A stretch of 55,973 bases of DNA from Promethearchaeia archaeon (GCA_046483985.1 JAWOCD010000033.1:1-55973), one strand, 5' to 3'; positions 15,061-22,238 are shown, counted from the first letter of the stretch. Program-made: numbers and translations. Notes: generated from the sequence alone by a model not told the origin.

Positions 15061-15258
15061 TTAAATGTCCCGAGGTTTTACCGTTTTTCTTCCATTTGCT
15101 TTAGCTCTATCGATTGCATAGTCAAGAATGTTAACGATTCTTTCATTTAACTTATCTCCATCAACAACGGATTTACTGGTGTTGCAGTCGTGAGCTTTTA
15201 TATACTCTCGGACCTTTGATTTCACGAACAAGGGATCTAATTCTTTCTTTTTAGCCAT
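15061..15258 (-). CDS. Histone-fold protein of the alpha3 class (Bd0055/face-to-face-like)
   Basis: LFVKSKVREYIK...NTS...A.DRAKANGRKTVKPRD (RxTxxxxD with truncated alpha3); start ATG 15258 preceded by GGAGG. Confidence 0.8.
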   Translation of the reverse strand: MAKKKELDPLFVKSKVREYIKAHDCNTSKSVVDGDKLNERIVNILDYAIDRAKANGRKTVKPRDI

Positions 15259-15788
15259 TTTTAATTCCTCCATTAATTTTGAAATTATGTTTAATATTTT
15301 TCTATATTGAATTTATAGTAAGATTTGTTAATTTAATATTTAGAAAGAGTTTTATTTAAAATCTTCTATTTTTATAGTTTCGGACTGAATAAACCATAAA
15401 TAAAAGTATGAAAAATGGCAGAGAGTTCTCTTATTTCATTTATCTACTTCGTAAGTATATATAGACCATAATAAATATTATTTAGTATCATCTCCTTTTA
15501 ACTGAACAGATATTTTGGGGCATTTCTTAATTAATAAATAATAGAGTCTTTATGATCTCTACTTTAATTCTAGTATTCAATTGAATGGGTCACATATTTA
15601 AGAATTTATAACCAAACATAAAATTTATGAGCGGACTTTAGCATATATTAGGGGTGAAGAACAAGATAATAGGGTTAAAGATTTAAAGTCTCTAAGATTC
15701 CCGTATTTAACTACAATGGAGAAATCTTCTACATTCTCTTTTTTTCGCTTTCGCTTTTGATGATTACGTCACCCTAAAAGCAATTTAA

Positions 15789-16040
15789 TTGAACTACCAC
15801 ACCATAAATGGCGTGGATTTGTAATCCATCGAGGATTGCTGACATAACATTAGTCTGACATCCTCTTCAAACGCATTCACCGTGGTTCCTACGGCAGAAT
15901 CATTATGAGTAAGGAGTTTGATAGTATTTTCTTCTAATTGGTTTTTCCCTTCTTTTTTGATTTCTTTAATAATCGTCTTTATAAAATAAGGAATAATGAT
16001 CAATAGTTCATCCCATAAACTCCTTTAGACTTAACTTAGG
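15789..16040 (-). mobile_element. Non-autonomous IS200/IS605-type mini-element A with TnpB omega-RNA-like scaffold
   Basis: Minus strand: TTTC|14 nt-AAAG...GGGATGAA (degenerate left end), TTTATAAA box, GCCGTAGGAACCACGGTGAATGCGTTTG scaffold, right-end hairpin CCACGCCA-ttta-TGGTGTGG-tagt-TCAA; translates to the TnpB-tail-like SAVGTTVNAFEEDVRL..QSSMDYKSTPFMVW. Confidence 0.75.
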
Positions 16041-16095
16041 GAAAAAATCATTTGAAATTCCCCTTAAAAATAAAAAATAGAAATTGAAAGGGGAA

Positions 16096-16665
16096 TTATT
16101 TCTTTTTTCGAGGTGATTTACCACATTTGGGACAAACAGTAGTATCTGCGGAGATGATCCATCCACAATTGGCGCATTTCCTTAGATTTGAGGACGCTTC
16201 CTCTTTTGCTTGTTCTTCGGCTGTTTCTTCTTGCTGAAGTGCTTCATATTCTGGTAGAAGATAATGCTTTGTGTAAAGTGGGTATTCATTTATTTGGTAT
16301 TTAAAGAGTTGACGAAATGCCTGCATATCGTCTAACGCTCTTTTAACCTCATAATTGCTGACATCATAATTCTTCTCTTTTTCAAATACCTTCTCCACAT
16401 ATTTGGCTAATTTCTTGGATTTGTCCTGCTTTTTAATCTTTTTAGCAATCCCTTTGGCCTTTTTTTCTTTTTCTTGATAAACCCATAGATCTTTTTCAAT
16501 ATTATCGAAAACAAATAATACACCCAAGTAATCTTCTTTAGAAATCATAGTTTCAAACTTTCTGAAGTTAGGGATGAATTCTTGGACTGAAACGCCGGCT
16601 ACATTGGAAAGATAATAGGCCTCAATATTAAAGCCGCAAATATCTTCATATTTTTGTAATACCAT
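16096..16665 (-). CDS. Hypothetical protein with C-terminal zinc ribbon
   Basis: CANCGW...CPKCG at the C-terminus; 189 aa ORF with typical codon usage. Confidence 0.7.
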   Translation of the reverse strand: MVLQKYEDICGFNIEAYYLSNVAGVSVQEFIPNFRKFETMISKEDYLGVLFVFDNIEKDLWVYQEKEKKAKGIAKKIKKQDKSKKLAKYVEKVFEKEKNYDVSNYEVKRALDDMQAFRQLFKYQINEYPLYTKHYLLPEYEALQQEETAEEQAKEEASSNLRKCANCGWIISADTTVCPKCGKSPRKKK

Positions 16666-16865
16666 ATATAATTTTCACAGAGATTAAATAATTCTATAAG
16701 CTTAATTAGCTACTTTTTTATTTAATTTTTAAGGAAAAAAAAAGTAGTATAAGGTTAATAGCTGATATACATCTAGACAAACTTGGACATAATTTAAATC
16801 TCTTTATTATCTGTATGACTTCGGGGTATATTAACCGCCGATCTTTTTCAATTTTCATGTATTCC

Positions 16866-17120
16866 ATAGTGGGTTTTGGCCAGATAGCAGCGAATGTGGT
16901 TTTACTGGCAGATGCAAGCCCATGTGGAGAACCGGCAAACGATCGAGGGTTACCGTGTAACCGCGGGCAGCATATGCATAAGTCGTCGGTGCACGCCATG
17001 TGCCGTTTACCGCGATCGTCAGTCAGCGATCCTTTGAAGATTTGTGGGGTTGTCCCGATATGTCCAGATTTTTTCTGACTGTTTCAGTGCAGAAGAATCC
17101 ACATGACTCTTCTCTACTAT
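16866..17120 (+). ncRNA. Unidentified GC-rich structured RNA candidate
   Basis: About 50% GC in an AT-rich intergenic region; nested stems including 5'/3' end pairing; TATA-like TATATTAA about 35-40 nt upstream; T-run downstream; strand not certain. Confidence 0.5.
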
Positions 17121-17143
17121 TCAATAGAATTTTTGAGATCAGA

Positions 17144-17255
17144 TTGAACTACCACGCCTAGAGAGCGAGCAATTCGTAATTCATCGCACACTGCTCATCT
17201 AAGTGCACGAGTCTTACAGATTCACCGTACTCCCCACTGCAGAATAATTATGAAT
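17144..17255 (-). ncRNA. Orphan TnpB omega-RNA-like scaffold B (IS200/IS605 right end) in the alba 3' region
   Basis: Homologous to elements A and C (TAAGACTCGTGCACTTAG, GCGATGAATTACGAAT, ...GTGGTAGTTCAA); begins 3 nt after the alba stop; no left end seen. Confidence 0.72.
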
Positions 17256-17258
17256 AAA

Positions 17259-17543
17259 TTATTTTTCAGGTGGACTTAAGACAATCTCCATGCTTGAAAC
17301 ATTGTTTTTTCGACCATTTTCTCCCTCAAGTCGTTCCGTGTCAATCTTAATTTCTTTATATTCTGTACCTTTGAGAAACCGATTTCTTAGAATTTCGCAA
17401 ACATCCACAGCGTGGGAAATTGCTCTGCCGCGTGCCTTGACAGTACAATCCTCTCCTTTGTTTAGAACCATCATTCCGGCCATAACATAATTCATAGTTG
17501 GTCTGCGACCGACATAGACAGTATTCTCATTTTTATTTGCCAT
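17259..17543 (-). CDS. albA: DNA/RNA-binding protein Alba
   Basis: NTVYVGRRPTMNYVMA, VKARGRAISHAVDV, NVSSMEIVL. Confidence 0.95.
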   Translation of the reverse strand: MANKNENTVYVGRRPTMNYVMAGMMVLNKGEDCTVKARGRAISHAVDVCEILRNRFLKGTEYKEIKIDTERLEGENGRKNNVSSMEIVLSPPEK

Positions 17544-18033
17544 TTTTTATTCCTCTCCATAAACTTCTTATTTTAGTTTTTTGTATTATATTGTTTTTTT
17601 GTAATAATGTATTATTTGTTATATTTCACAGTTTTTAGCAATCAATACTGTTTGTACAGTTTATTAACTTCTTTATTTTTTGAACATTAAACAATAAATA
17701 TTTAAAATTTAATAATTTTCTTGATTTTTTAAATTTTATTCATTATTGGTCATGAGTCTATCTCTATTTTGTAGGCGGTCAGAATTTTAAGAAGGTCTAA
17801 GATTAAAACCGTAATCCATAGAGGGAATCCGTTATTTATTTCTGATAAATTGAAAATTTATCCTCTTTAATTTCTCTAATTAAGGTTAATATTTAGAGGG
17901 TAGTGGCGAGAATACCAGAGAGAAAAATCATTCTAATAATATAATATATAATAAGACCAGACATAAATCTGTTTGCCATAATTATAATTTATGTCGGCAT
18001 AAAATAATAAAAAGAAGATATTAGAGGTAGAAA

Positions 18034-18693
18034 TTAGTAATCTTCGTTTTCTTCTTTTTTGATAATAATTTTGTCACCATCTCTTGTTTCTTTTTTTTCT
18101 TCCTCTTTTTCTTGATATATATCCCAAATAATACTAATGATAAGGAGCCCTCCAAAAATCACTAAAAGTGGGATAAACAAATTGAACTCCGTCAAAAAGA
18201 TCCTTACCCAGCCAATATATGGTATCCGCCCACAAACAACGCCGACTACTCGTTCCGCAGGAACCCAAGCTTTGTCCACATTAAAATTAGCATCTCCTTT
18301 AGTTAGGAAAAAATATCCGCTTTCATTATGTTCCTGATCAACTACCCGATGGACAATTGGTTCATCTGGAGCTCCTGCCCATAAACCTCGGGCATCGTAG
18401 ACTATAACATCCCCTTCTTTATTTTCTATGGTGCCGACTTTAATATCCTCTGGTTCCTTATCGGTTAAAAAGAGAAGGTCTCCTTTATGGATGTTAGGTT
18501 CCATAGAACCCGAAACCACCACTACCATGGGAGTATCTGTACCCAAAGAAGCTTGTAACCCAAAATAAATGATATAGGAACCAAAAAAGGCAAAGAAAAT
18601 AAGAATTATACCAATAATAATTTTCTTCTTGGACGTTTGGGACTTTTCCTTTTTTTTTTTTTTAGATTTCTCGATATATTTCTTAGACGACAT
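18034..18693 (-). CDS. sec11: Signal peptidase I (archaeal/ER Sec11 type, S26B)
   Basis: VVSGSMEP, GDVIVY, IVHRVV, TKGDAN, IPYIGW; N- and C-terminal TM helices. Confidence 0.92.
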   Translation of the reverse strand: MSSKKYIEKSKKKKKEKSQTSKKKIIIGIILIFFAFFGSYIIYFGLQASLGTDTPMVVVVSGSMEPNIHKGDLLFLTDKEPEDIKVGTIENKEGDVIVYDARGLWAGAPDEPIVHRVVDQEHNESGYFFLTKGDANFNVDKAWVPAERVVGVVCGRIPYIGWVRIFLTEFNLFIPLLVIFGGLLIISIIWDIYQEKEEEKKETRDGDKIIIKKEENEDY

Positions 18694-18797
18694 TTTAAAA
18701 GATTAATGAATAGTTAAATTACAAAATTAAGAGGGTAAATTTAATCTTATCCTATCACATCAGCAACTATAACTCGTTTTGGTGTATTTGTATTAGG

Positions 18798-19982
18798 TCA
18801 GTCCGTTTGATTTGCATTACGAATTGCTCGTCTTATCGCCTTCTTTTGTATGATTTTCACCGCAATAATGACTCCCGCAACTATTGCAGTAATGCCGATG
18901 GCTAAAATTAGAAAATCCCCAAGCGGAAAATTAGAATCTATATCCCAAGGATAATTCCCCTCATAATCTTGATTTTTTTCTGTGTAATAATTATTATAAA
19001 TAAATTGCTCCACTGTCTTTCCCGTAACTTCAAGGCTGTTCCTGGAAATATGGGATAAATCATCATCTGTGGTATGGTGGTAGGGCCAATCCGGATTTTC
19101 CCAAAAATTAATGATCAGATCTGCTGCTGGAATTCCTTCGTCCACAAATGGTTTATGGTCATCCTCAATTTTATTTACTTCCGGCATTGTTGGAAATTCA
19201 TCTGTGTATCCAAGTGCTCGACCGACTTGAAATAGTTCGTCCAATAGTGAGGAGGTTGAATACTGTTCATCGATAAATTTTAGATTTTCTCCAGCCACCA
19301 TATCTAAGAGGATCATTGCATCAAAATCTTCAGTATTCTTATCATAAAACTCCGTAAGATCTGAAACAAATTCATTAGAGCCTTCGCAAAAAGACCACTC
19401 TTGCATTGCATATTCCCCACTATTATCTTTCCCTTGATCTTCGGCGTCAAAAAGAAGAAACCACAATTGACAATCCAAATTTTCTCGTTGTGCATAGAAA
19501 AGGCGTGCCAATTCAATAATTACTCCACATCCTGAAGCACCGTCATTCGCACCAGGAACGGGAGAATCGGGGTTAGTTTCATCTTTCGTAGCTTTTGCGC
19601 GAGAATCATAATGTGCGCCGATTATAATGATATTTTGATGACCCTCATTAAGTTTAAACAATAAATTTCTGCAATCTGTGGACATTATTGTATATTCATG
19701 CGGATAATATGAAATTTCATCCCCAATCTCGTTAAATGCATTAATAAAATACTGCTGGCAATCAAGACTTGCTTGTGTACCAGGAGATCTATTCCCAAAA
19801 TTTACCTGCGTCTCCACATGAGAATGAGCAGCCTCTTTGTTAAATTTCAATTCTACATCAATATTTTGAAACTCGCCCGCCGAATGAGGCGGAAAAAAAA
19901 ATAAGGTAATAAATAGTCCACCGATTATCATCGGAGTTAAGATACTAAGAACTCGTTTCCACAACAAGGTGAACAACATCAC
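18798..19982 (-). CDS. Membrane-anchored M28-family metallopeptidase / glutaminyl cyclase-like
   Basis: GAHYDSR, GANDGASG, FDAED, LLDMV, DDHKPF, HHTTDD; signal and C-terminal TM. Confidence 0.88.
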   Translation of the reverse strand: MMLFTLLWKRVLSILTPMIIGGLFITLFFFPPHSAGEFQNIDVELKFNKEAAHSHVETQVNFGNRSPGTQASLDCQQYFINAFNEIGDEISYYPHEYTIMSTDCRNLLFKLNEGHQNIIIIGAHYDSRAKATKDETNPDSPVPGANDGASGCGVIIELARLFYAQRENLDCQLWFLLFDAEDQGKDNSGEYAMQEWSFCEGSNEFVSDLTEFYDKNTEDFDAMILLDMVAGENLKFIDEQYSTSSLLDELFQVGRALGYTDEFPTMPEVNKIEDDHKPFVDEGIPAADLIINFWENPDWPYHHTTDDDLSHISRNSLEVTGKTVEQFIYNNYYTEKNQDYEGNYPWDIDSNFPLGDFLILAIGITAIVAGVIIAVKIIQKKAIRRAIRNANQTD

Positions 19983-19990
19983 AGTTTTTT

Positions 19991-20214
19991 TTGAACTAAC
20001 ACGGCCTAAGGAGCGGTGGATTCGTAATTCATCGCAAATCCCTCGCCTAAGTGCACGAGTCTTATAGATGCTCCAAACGCTAACCCCGCAGCCCTTGCGG
20101 TTACACGATGAACTCGGTTATCGTCCATCACTATTTTTATAGTATTAATCGTTTATAAATGTATGTGCGAATCATCCCCGCCTTGAAGAAGGGGGGCATT
20201 CTCACACTCTAGTG
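19991..20214 (-). mobile_element. Complete 224-bp non-autonomous IS200/IS605 (IS608-like) mini-element C carrying an omega-RNA
   Basis: Minus strand: target TTAC (20215-20218)|left end with hairpin CCCCCCTT-cttc-AAGGCGGGG; TTTATAAA; 5' hairpin GATGGAC..GTTCATC; ACCGCAAGGGCTGCGG..GCGTTTGGAG scaffold; right end GAAT...TCAA. Confidence 0.8.
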
Positions 20215-20315
20215 GTAAAAATTGAAGATTATATTTAAAATAAGGTGCTCAAGATTTATAATGTTTTGATTTTAAAAGAAAACAAAAATAAAAGATAAAA
20301 AGAAAGAAAAAAGAG

Positions 20316-22238
20316 TTATTCTTCTTCGAGCATTTCTTTAATTCTATCAATGGTGGTCGGATCTTCAATAGTACTGAGATCTCCCGGTTCTTTTCCCTCA
20401 ACGAGATTTTTAATGGCACGCCGAATGATTTTTCCAGATCTGGTCTTTGGTAATGCTTCCACGAAATAGATTGCTTTTGGGGTTGCAACGGGACCGATTT
20501 GTTCACGTACAATCTGTTTCATTTCATCAGCTAATTCTGGGCTTTCTTCATACCCTTTCTTTAACACAACCATCGCAACGGGCACTTGTCCCTTCACCTC
20601 ATCTTTCACTCCAATACAGCATACTTCTGCAACGGCTTCATGTTTGGTAAAAACTGCTTCCATTTCGCCTGTACCTAGTCGATGTCCCGCAACTTTAATA
20701 ACCTCATCAGCTCGACCTAAAACATAAAAATATCCATCTTCATCTTCAATCGCATAATCTCCAGTAGCATAGTAGTTATGATCGGGAAATACATTATAGT
20801 AAGAGTCCTTATATCGCTGATCGTTTTTATAAACAGTTAAAAGGACTGATGGAGGAGTTGGAGGTCTGGCAACGAGATATCCCTTTTCGCCTTTACCTAC
20901 TTCCTCTCCATTAGCATCTACAACGAGTAAATCCCATCCCCACATTGGTTTCGTGGGACTGCCAGGCTTTATTTTTAATGGAGCAACACCATAAGGGTTC
21001 GCTAAAATAGGCCAACCAGTTTCAGTCTGCCAGTAATTGTCAATAACCGCGATATCCTCTCCTAAGACTTCATTCATCCATTTATAGGTGGGTTTATCCA
21101 ACGGTTCACCTGCCAGATAGATTGTATCTAAGGAACTCAGATCATTGTCGGTGATATATTTTTTATCATATTTCTTTAAAATTCTAAAGGCAGTCGGGGC
21201 CGAAAAGACGGTATTTACATCATAATTCTCAATTATTTTAAACCAAGCATTGGGTTCAGGATAGACTGGAGTGCCTTCATAAATTATCGACGTACATCCT
21301 TTAAATAAAGGAGCATAAATAATATAGGAGTGCCCCACAACCCATCCGATATCGCTTGTTGCAAAGTAGACTTGTCCAGTATCCGTATTAAAAATGGACT
21401 TCATTGAATGATAAAGCGCAACAAGATGACCTCCCGTATCACGGACCACACCTTTTGGTTTTCCGGTCGTTCCGCTGGTGTAGAGAATATATGAGGGATC
21501 TGTGCTGTTCATTACCTCTGGCTCAACAAACACATCATCCCCTTTTTCTTCCATCAAATCATCCCAATAGACATCTCTGCCCTCTTCCATAGAATGATCA
21601 ACTAGTTCCCGATTCACTACTATGTTATGGGGGACTTTATATTCGGTCGTCTCTAATGTGTCATCAACAATCGTTTTCAGATCAATCTCTTTTCCATTCC
21701 TCACACTTCCATCTGCACTAATTATAACTTCAGGCTCAGAATCCTCAATTCGTACAGAGAGTGAGCGGACTGAAAAGCCTGCAAATACAACTGAATGAAT
21801 TGCACCAATTCTTACACAAGCAAGCATAGCAATGGCAGCTTCGGGGATCATCGGTAAATAAATAACAATTCTATCTCCTTTTTCGACTCCATAATCTTTC
21901 AGAACGCTTGCAAACCGGTTAACCCGGCTTAATAATTCTTTATATGTGATCTTTTCTTCCTTTCCGAGCTCAGAATACCAAATAAATGCATTGCGATCTG
22001 GAGCTTTTTCTGCCCATCGGTCTACCGCGTTATAACAAGTATTAGTCTGACCTCCAACGAACCATTTATAAAACGGAGGATTACTGTCATCGAGAACTTG
22101 ATCCCATTTTTTATACCAATGGATATTCTCGGCAATAGGCTCCCAGAATTCTGCTGGATTCTCTAACGATTGCTTATGCATTTTTTTATATTTCTTAAGA
22201 TTTTCTTTATGACTCATATTATTTTCCTCATAATTCAT
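20316..22238 (-). CDS. acs: Acetate/propionate--CoA ligase (AMP-forming)
   Basis: YILYTSGTTGKPKG, SDIGWVVGHSY, DNYWQTETG, GRADEVIKVAGHRLG, LPKTRSGKI; could be PrpE-type. Confidence 0.9.
   Translation of the reverse strand: MNYEENNMSHKENLKKYKKMHKQSLENPAEFWEPIAENIHWYKKWDQVLDDSNPPFYKWFVGGQTNTCYNAVDRWAEKAPDRNAFIWYSELGKEEKITYKELLSRVNRFASVLKDYGVEKGDRIVIYLPMIPEAAIAMLACVRIGAIHSVVFAGFSVRSLSVRIEDSEPEVIISADGSVRNGKEIDLKTIVDDTLETTEYKVPHNIVVNRELVDHSMEEGRDVYWDDLMEEKGDDVFVEPEVMNSTDPSYILYTSGTTGKPKGVVRDTGGHLVALYHSMKSIFNTDTGQVYFATSDIGWVVGHSYIIYAPLFKGCTSIIYEGTPVYPEPNAWFKIIENYDVNTVFSAPTAFRILKKYDKKYITDNDLSSLDTIYLAGEPLDKPTYKWMNEVLGEDIAVIDNYWQTETGWPILANPYGVAPLKIKPGSPTKPMWGWDLLVVDANGEEVGKGEKGYLVARPPTPPSVLLTVYKNDQRYKDSYYNVFPDHNYYATGDYAIEDEDGYFYVLGRADEVIKVAGHRLGTGEMEAVFTKHEAVAEVCCIGVKDEVKGQVPVAMVVLKKGYEESPELADEMKQIVREQIGPVATPKAIYFVEALPKTRSGKIIRRAIKNLVEGKEPGDLSTIEDPTTIDRIKEMLEEE

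Follow-up and report, generated by a model that had tools for sequence, protein, structure and literature searches.

Three short homologous segments, A, B, and C, lie on the minus strand of a 55,973-nucleotide (nt) contig of a Promethearchaeia archaeon (GCA_046483985.1, JAWOCD010000033.1:1-55973; contig C64, hereafter the window), close to genes for a histone-like protein and Alba. An earlier note on this DNA had read them as stand-alone cassettes for omega-RNA (ωRNA), the guide RNA of TnpB, each with a guide of its own. We consider it very likely that A, B, and C are copies of dispersed, protein-less deletion derivatives of a tnpB-only insertion sequence (IS) of the IS200/IS605 type (an IS1341-type element), and that they are now inert or decaying, because the assembly contains neither a cognate tnpB nor an intact tnpA.

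The shared unit is continuous with the 3' end of tnpB in related genomes

Alignment of A, B, and C gave a mean column identity of 70% over 194 columns, in line with the earlier claim of three homologous minus-strand segments. The aligned core spanned about 15789-15914 in A, 17144-17258 in B, and 19991-20120 in C, and a CGATG.ATTAC...TAGTTCAA block was invariant among the three. Similarity ended at TAGTTCAA with nothing in common downstream, just as the end of homology had been placed exactly at TCAA, and the three downstream flanks quoted in the note proved exact on re-reading. A profile made from the three copies recovered 37 near-full-length copies and about 30 matches to the last ~40 nt only in the 128 contigs (4.06 Mb) of the genome, so the likeness of A, B, and C is far beyond chance. 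With nhmmer, 42 copies of at least 60 nt were counted, and the covariance-model search for further copies that the note had proposed returned 47 matches. Of 24 genomes searched within the host's family, 12 had 1-56 copies each and the other 12 had none. The idea of a local, dedicated guide set is therefore not supported: the repeat, patchy in related genomes, has roughly 45 dispersed copies here, of which A, B, and C are three.

In an alignment of 34 copies, similarity was lost right after TAGTTCAA in every copy (34/34), and all 34 downstream flanks were different. The unit closed with TTCAA in 30 copies, TTTAA in three, and TTCAG in one. At C24, C18, C71, and C33, matches to the last ~40 nt followed tnpB zinc-ribbon remnants at a distance of ~100 nt, which identifies the common 3' end as a true right end of an IS200/IS605 element.

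G024, another genome of the host's family, carries a 432-aa open reading frame (ORF; P0001) with HTH_OrfB_IS605, OrfB_IS605, and Cas12f1-like zinc-ribbon domains, and this TnpB ORF terminates inside the repeat. Its homologues were found in metagenome-assembled genomes (MAGs) labelled Promethearchaeota, Promethearchaeia, or Helarchaeota, all of them Asgard archaea. A covariance model (R1), built from the protein-less copies of the present genome only, matched the 3' end of intact ~430-aa tnpB genes in 13 of 13 Asgard loci with scores of 84-132 bits, and the ORF ended within the match. The tnpB with the same 3' end that the note had called for is thus present in relatives, although none was found in this assembly. 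Since the repeat is continuous with tnpB 3' ends in relatives, the shared ~125-nt unit is the last ~45 codons of the tnpB of a tnpB-only IS200/IS605 element together with its right end. In characterised TnpB systems, the tnpB tail and right end are the template of the ωRNA scaffold (PMC10097598, PMC10055086). No transposase or nuclease gene lies within the elements, and all that remains of tnpB is its tail, which in C is a frame of 41 aa and in A a stretch of about 55 codons. The TnpB-tail-like peptide that the note had reported for A matched residues 378-432 of the intact TnpB with 62% identity (E 1e-12).

Five covarying helices support an ωRNA-type scaffold

A five-helix model, P2-P6 with 31 pairs, was drawn by hand and tested with slid and shuffled controls on an unbiased MAFFT alignment. 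In the 34 protein-less copies, 87% of cells were paired, compared with 24-46% when the partners were slid by 1-3 columns, and 77 cells were doubly changed (compensatory), compared with 28 in the shuffles. Pairs changed on both sides numbered 15 of 31 in the protein-less copies and 21 of 31 in the tnpB-attached copies. For 15 tnpB-locus matches (the 13 Asgard loci and two distant ones), 95% of cells were paired, compared with 24-48% in the slid controls of the two sets, in a model-fitted alignment that somewhat favours the model. The match of R1 to 13/13 tnpB 3' ends, together with five helices showing compensatory change, therefore supports the ωRNA-scaffold call, and with it the right-end origin that the earlier note had put forward.

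P5 (GAATTAC/GTAGTTC) encloses the right-end hairpin P6 and is the element described earlier as GAAT-hairpin-TAGTTCAA. The shared "5' hairpin" (CCGTAG...CTACGG) of the note is a real stem, but it is the scaffold-internal stem P2 and not a transposon end. From the raw MAFFT alignment, RNAalifold returned one helix only, because indels offset the other helices. Folding of single sequences is not decisive here: the z-score was good for A (-2.9) and modest for B (-1.75), and that of C (-0.06) was unremarkable.

Within subfamilies, stem positions changed at 9.7% and unpaired or loop positions at 6.9%, and a pair was broken by 61 of 135 stem changes, which indicates relaxed constraint after insertion. 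Private changes thus broke stems about as often as they spared them, a pattern that the note had listed among the marks of dead IS relics. The compensatory pattern lay mostly between subfamilies and was therefore inherited from active masters.

Copy C is a complete miniature element

The three segments are not equivalent cassettes: only C is complete, with a left end and a TATA-like box, whereas A and B are left-end-less and the scaffold of B is partly deleted. The elements are longer than the note had stated, A extending to ~15966 and C to 20214. By blastn, the similarity of C to 16 other copies reached 20214-20221, and the flanks were unrelated outside the limits set by TTTAC on the left and TCAA on the right. 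The order in the alignment of these 17 complete copies was flank, TTTAC, CACTAGAGTGCGAG, an imperfect hairpin, TTTATAAA, a spacer of ~22 nt, P1, P2-P6, TTCAA, and flank (Table 1). The motif before the complete copies was TTTAC in 14 of 17, TTTAA in two, and TTTAT in one.

Imperfect subterminal hairpins, which together with the absence of terminal inverted repeats mark non-autonomous IS200/IS605 elements, were present at both ends in C and its 16 siblings, and at the right end only in A and B. The left-end hairpin showed compensatory differences between subfamilies (CCCCG.CC/GGGCGGGG versus CACCGTCC/GGGCGGTG). We also observed that the C-type left-end hairpin (CCCCG.CC TTYA GGGCGGGG) is almost the same as the hairpin at the right end of the genome's most abundant tnpB family (...CCCCGTCCTTTAGGGCGGGGAGACTTCAA), and that A, B, and C have a right end matching that of another tnpB family (...CCACCGCCCTTTAGGGCGTGGTAGTTCAA). 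This likeness across tnpB families suggests shared TnpA recognition or chimeric ends.

TATA-like boxes were found at a similar distance in copies from three other genomes (G022, G015, and G023), and we infer that the box of C may have promoter activity. TTTAC likewise precedes the intact G024 element, in which a left-end hairpin and an A/T-rich box lie ahead of tnpB. From this layout, the miniature form looks like an internal deletion that placed the promoter region of the element beside the scaffold.

The right end of C lies 11 nt upstream of the ATG of an M28 peptidase gene (18798-19979), so the original promoter of this gene would have been displaced by the element. The internal TTTATAAA box of C could drive a peptidase transcript with a structured leader of ~140 nt.

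Table 1. Positions and main properties of the elements in the window (counted from its first letter) and, where a contig is named, elsewhere in the assembly
Feature	Position	Strand	Remark
Copy A, left-end-less: last ~55 tnpB codons, scaffold, and right end	15789-15966	-	~180 nt common to five siblings
A, guide-position flank TTAAATTGCTTTTAGGGTGA	15769-15788	-	
A, pairs intact and model score			29/31, 116 bits
Unrelated G+C-rich miniature repeat between A and B, outside the A/B/C family	16745-17088	+	Both ends recur at at least 12 loci
Copy B, left-end-less, internally deleted	17144-17258	-	Begins directly after alba stop codon
B, guide-position flank TCTGATCTCAAAAATTCTAT	17124-17143	-	
B, pairs intact and model score			23/31, 74 bits
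Copy C, complete 224-nt miniature IS200/IS605 element (PATE/MITE, see text)	19991-20214	-	Full-length similarity to 16 genome copies
C, guide-position flank AAAAAACTGTGATGTTGTTC	19971-19990	-	Overlaps M28 peptidase start (ATG 19977-19979)
C, ωRNA-type scaffold P2-P6, closing TAGTTCAA	19991-20100	-	26/31 pairs intact
C, stem P1 (GATGGAC...GTTCATC)	20107-20129	-	Found only in complete-element subfamilies
C, archaeal TATA-box-like motif TTTATAAA, ~22 nt upstream of P1	20152-20159	-	Same position in 15/17 complete copies
C, left-end subterminal imperfect hairpin (GTGTGAG..CCCCCC..GGCGGGG..TCGCACA)	20164-20207	-	Conserved in 17 complete copies
TTAC (TTTAC with 20219), target/transposon-adjacent motif (TAM) beside left end of C	20215-20218	-	
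C, pairs intact and model score			26/31, 127 bits
tnpB-attached copies, pairs intact and model score			About 29.5/31 (95% of cells), 84-132 bits
Interrupted TnpA	C66:70294-70656		In-frame TAA
Interrupted TnpA	C67:11112-11414		Frame ends before catalytic Tyr
Interrupted TnpA	C97:1242-1610		Frameshifts

The family has moved in the manner of IS200/IS605 elements

One copy in genome G003 was missing at the orthologous site in the congeneric genome G023, where the flanks were contiguous, and the insertion lay directly after TTTTTA(C). This pair of filled and empty sites reflects the IS200/IS605 mode of insertion, 3' of a target motif and without duplication. In an intact element, the tnpB tail and right end would template the ωRNA scaffold P2-P6, and the RNA would run past TCAA into the flank, which would serve as the guide; the TATA-like box of C would start transcription just before the scaffold. 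On the model of IS608 and ISGst, C might be excised and inserted as single-stranded DNA if a Y1 TnpA and a cognate TnpB were supplied in trans, and it might be restored by guide-directed cleavage of the emptied site (TTAC plus flank). Precise excision of C would leave TTTAC joined directly to AAAAAACTG.

The same evidence bears on whether the segments could be another structured RNA or cis element, such as a C/D-box sRNA, a terminator, or a riboswitch-like leader, that resembles an IS end by chance. Such an identity would account for a GATGA-like motif, several hairpins, and the location of A and B downstream of genes. However, in 13 loci the tnpB reading frame runs into the sequence without a break, complete copies have the anatomy of TTTAC, left end, and right end, an empty site exists in a congener, and no Rfam match was obtained even at E up to 10. 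We therefore give this explanation next to no likelihood. The Rfam searches, run with gathering thresholds on the whole window and with E values up to 10 on 15500-20500, returned no relevant family. A C/D-box sRNA in particular was ruled out by tnpB continuity, transposon anatomy, and the lack of an Rfam match.

A and B are truncated copies in a probably permissive stretch of a conserved gene row

Siblings of A on contigs C37 and C41 keep the left end, joined by deletion to RuvC-III/tail codons, and A has unrelated sequence at that place. The ~14 nt missing from B are half of P2 and the conserved GCGTTTGGAG linker. A and B are best regarded as immobile, truncated right-end relics, the scaffold of A being almost intact. 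In A-type copies, the TTAC before P2 might have served as an alternative left-end cleavage site, which would account for the short copies; we rejected this because the left boundaries of the short copies are heterogeneous, and random truncation or deletion is the simpler explanation. B (within 17091-17261, minus strand) sits between the alba stop codon and a hairpin of the 3' untranslated region (UTR; AGAGAAG...CTTCT) that also follows alba in genomes G009 and G004, and B would therefore be part of the alba transcript.

The surrounding genes form a conserved row of a histone-like ORF, a zinc-ribbon ORF, Alba (PF01918, E 1e-16), an S26-like signal peptidase, an M28 peptidase, and an acetyl-CoA-synthetase-like gene. 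The histone-like ORF beside A (15061-15273, minus strand) is a candidate histone only, with a weak match to DUF1931 (histone-fold-like; E 0.007) below the curated cut-off. The row's first and second spacers are element-free in G009, where they measure 129 and 185 nt, compared with 822 and 593 nt in the window, where the first spacer holds A and the second holds B and the G+C-rich repeat at 16745-17088. A, B, and C would have arrived as insertions into the short spacers of the stretch of this row from the histone-like ORF through the zinc-ribbon, alba, and signal-peptidase genes to the M28 gene.

When 42 copies were placed at random, three fell within 4.4 kb in 3.5% of cases, which makes the clustering no more than mildly unusual. 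The insertion hotspot envisaged in the note is favoured weakly, by p about 0.035 and by a fourth, unrelated element in the same spacer. The clustering and the fourth element suggest a permissive spacer region, not a dedicated locus. The right part of this G+C-rich repeat shares 92% identity with the 3' flanking sequence of a TnpB-like pseudogene (C16:36402-36531), and the repeat may be another ωRNA-type relic, tail-to-tail with B.

Partner genes and guide targets in the genome

The earlier statement that the window holds no tnpA or tnpB was correct, as C64 had no zinc-ribbon, OrfB_IS605, or Y1 TnpA match. The genome as a whole gave 26 TnpB zinc-ribbon matches and 15 Y1 TnpA (PF01797) matches, none of them on C64. 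Nearly all 26 zinc-ribbon matches were C-terminal remnants with open frames of 55-174 aa, many at contig ends, and the IS200/IS605 population of this MAG is dominated by deletion derivatives that fragment the assembly.

No cognate tnpB was found in the assembly (97% complete, 128 contigs), in which P0001-like matches were tail fragments only. The sole long TnpB ORF (C97:3-1226, minus strand; 408+ aa) runs off the contig end and is ~30% identical to P0001 (30% by BLASTP and 32% in the whole-genome search). Its tail and right end (...GGGCGGGGAGACTTCAA) differ from those of the A/B/C family, and it belongs to another IS family. It reads IIVGDLNV where P0001 reads VILEDLNI, with Gly at the RuvC-II catalytic Glu, and could be a decaying gene or a nuclease-impaired TnpB. 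Likewise, no intact IS200-type Y1 transposase was found in the assembly: the full-coverage TnpA matches were all interrupted (Table 1), and others were cut by contig ends.

The putative use of the flanks as guides was examined by searching for targets. At 0 mismatches the guides of A, B, and C matched only their own loci, and no second TTAC-flanked match was found in the genome at 0 or 1 mismatch. One match to the guide of B with 2 mismatches behind ATTTAC (C85:13578) was within chance expectation. In viral contigs, no match to TTAC plus the 16-nt guide of A, B, or C was obtained. The guide search proposed in the note was thus negative in both the genome and the viral contigs.

These results bear on whether A, B, and/or C are functional stand-alone ωRNA genes that are transcribed, loaded in trans on a TnpB encoded elsewhere in the cell, and used to cleave their own emptied sites, in the selfish homing and retention known from PATEs (see below) and stand-alone ωRNAs. 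The scaffold is homologous to the tnpB-attached one and still has 29/31 pairs in A and 26/31 in C; C and its siblings keep the TATA-like box at a fixed distance from P1; stand-alone ωRNAs are used in trans in bacteria (PMC10055086, PMC10691335); and a partner gene may have been lost from an assembly that breaks at IS copies. However, the 97%-complete assembly holds no cognate tnpB, the C97 protein being only ~30% identical with a different 3' region and right end and a RuvC-II Glu-to-Gly change. Without a left end, A and B would not be excised, and homing would have nothing to counteract; the scaffold of B is partly deleted and scores 74 bits, and private substitutions break stems at a near-neutral rate. 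On balance, we regard such selfish use as unlikely.

Domestication would go further, making A, B, and C a guide set for a nuclease-dead TldR-like protein that regulates host genes, with B in the alba 3' UTR and C at the M28 gene as examples. The co-transcription of B with alba that is predicted from its place between the stop codon and the ancestral 3'-UTR hairpin, the 11-nt distance of the right end of C from the peptidase ATG, and the Gly at the RuvC-II Glu of the only long TnpB ORF would all suit this idea. Against it, no second TTAC-flanked guide target exists in the genome at 0 or 1 mismatch, the family is mobile and patchy across genomes with orthologous spacers in relatives free of copies, the E-to-G TnpB comes from a different IS family with a different right end, and B is the most damaged of the three. 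The domesticated guide set that the note had offered as an option is therefore not borne out, there being no second TAM-flanked guide target, no cognate tnpB, and a mobile, patchy family, and we hold it to be highly improbable.

Several observations nevertheless weigh against regarding the copies as inert derivatives. For A, B, and C themselves, no precise empty site came to light, and the site predicted for C was absent from the metagenome contigs by exact search. Pieces of tnpB or tnpA lie at the ends of contigs C97, C4, C16, C31, C9, and C59 of the 128-contig assembly; because contigs break inside IS copies, C31 for instance starting within an A-type tail, the assembly may have missed an intact cognate tnpB or tnpA. 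Complete copies, and copies in other genomes, conserve the TATA-like box well, and A, with 29/31 pairs, is as well paired as the tnpB-attached copies, both of which are compatible with some copies still being in use. There is a slim chance that some copies have been kept in use, the complete C-type copies as promoter-equipped trans-guide genes for a TnpB (possibly nuclease-impaired), with single insertions co-opted as well: B as an RNA processed from the abundant alba mRNA 3' UTR, and C as a source of a promoter and structured leader for the M28 gene.

Relation to known systems

IS608 of H. pylori and ISDra2 are the reference IS200/IS605 elements with a TnpB ωRNA, and right-end cleavage of IS608 occurs at TCAA. 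The family described here shares with them a TTAC-type left target motif, a TCAA right-end site as in IS608, and a scaffold that overlaps the tnpB 3' end and right end. It differs in that the related intact Asgard element has no adjacent tnpA, and the likeness rests on motifs and layout.

Palindrome-associated transposable elements (PATEs), or miniature inverted-repeat transposable elements (MITEs), of the IS200/IS605 group include ISGst-derived copies in Geobacillus stearothermophilus (Meers et al. 2023, PMC10055086) and the IStron-end PATE of C. difficile (10.1101/2023.11.20.567912). Like these, C has no protein gene, has subterminal hairpins at both ends and a TCAA right end, is inserted 3' of a motif without duplication, retains the ωRNA-coding right part, and would need TnpA and TnpB in trans; by sequence, C agrees with PATEs in all these respects. 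Unlike them, it has an Asgard host and a tnpB-only parent, and in the complete copies an archaeal TATA-like box stands immediately before the scaffold. Lacking a left end, A and B are not full PATEs.

Stand-alone ωRNAs without an effector or transposase are reported to act in trans (Altae-Tran et al. 2021, as summarised in PMC10691335). A, B, and C resemble them as mobilised scaffold-plus-guide loci with no effector or transposase gene, in a genome that has effector-bearing loci too, and with a flank of their own for each copy. They differ in that, in the described cases, the genomes hold a compatible effector and trans activity was demonstrated, whereas the A/B/C family has no cognate TnpB in the assembly and is known from its sequence. 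TldR is a nuclease-dead TnpB-like repressor whose gene stands beside its own guide RNA, the guide matching a host promoter (PMC10705468). Use of a TnpB-derived scaffold outside transposition is conceivable for A, B, and C too, but they have no adjacent protein gene and no matching target. TldR-like domestication thus fails at its defining point, because both the target and an adjacent dead effector are missing.

Stand-alone ωRNAs and ωRNA-bearing PATEs have already been described in bacteria, and A, B, and C are an archaeal case with no new mechanism. The value of the finding lies mainly in annotation, as it defines a previously unmodelled ωRNA scaffold and miniature family for a TnpB clade of Promethearchaeota, with the TAM TTTAC, the right end TTCAA, and five covarying helices. 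It also shows a MAG littered with remnants that have broken the assembly and expanded the intergenic spacers beside chromatin-protein genes. In addition, it yields a covariance model together with a matched intact TnpB, the 432-aa protein of G024, as a candidate compact archaeal RNA-guided nuclease.

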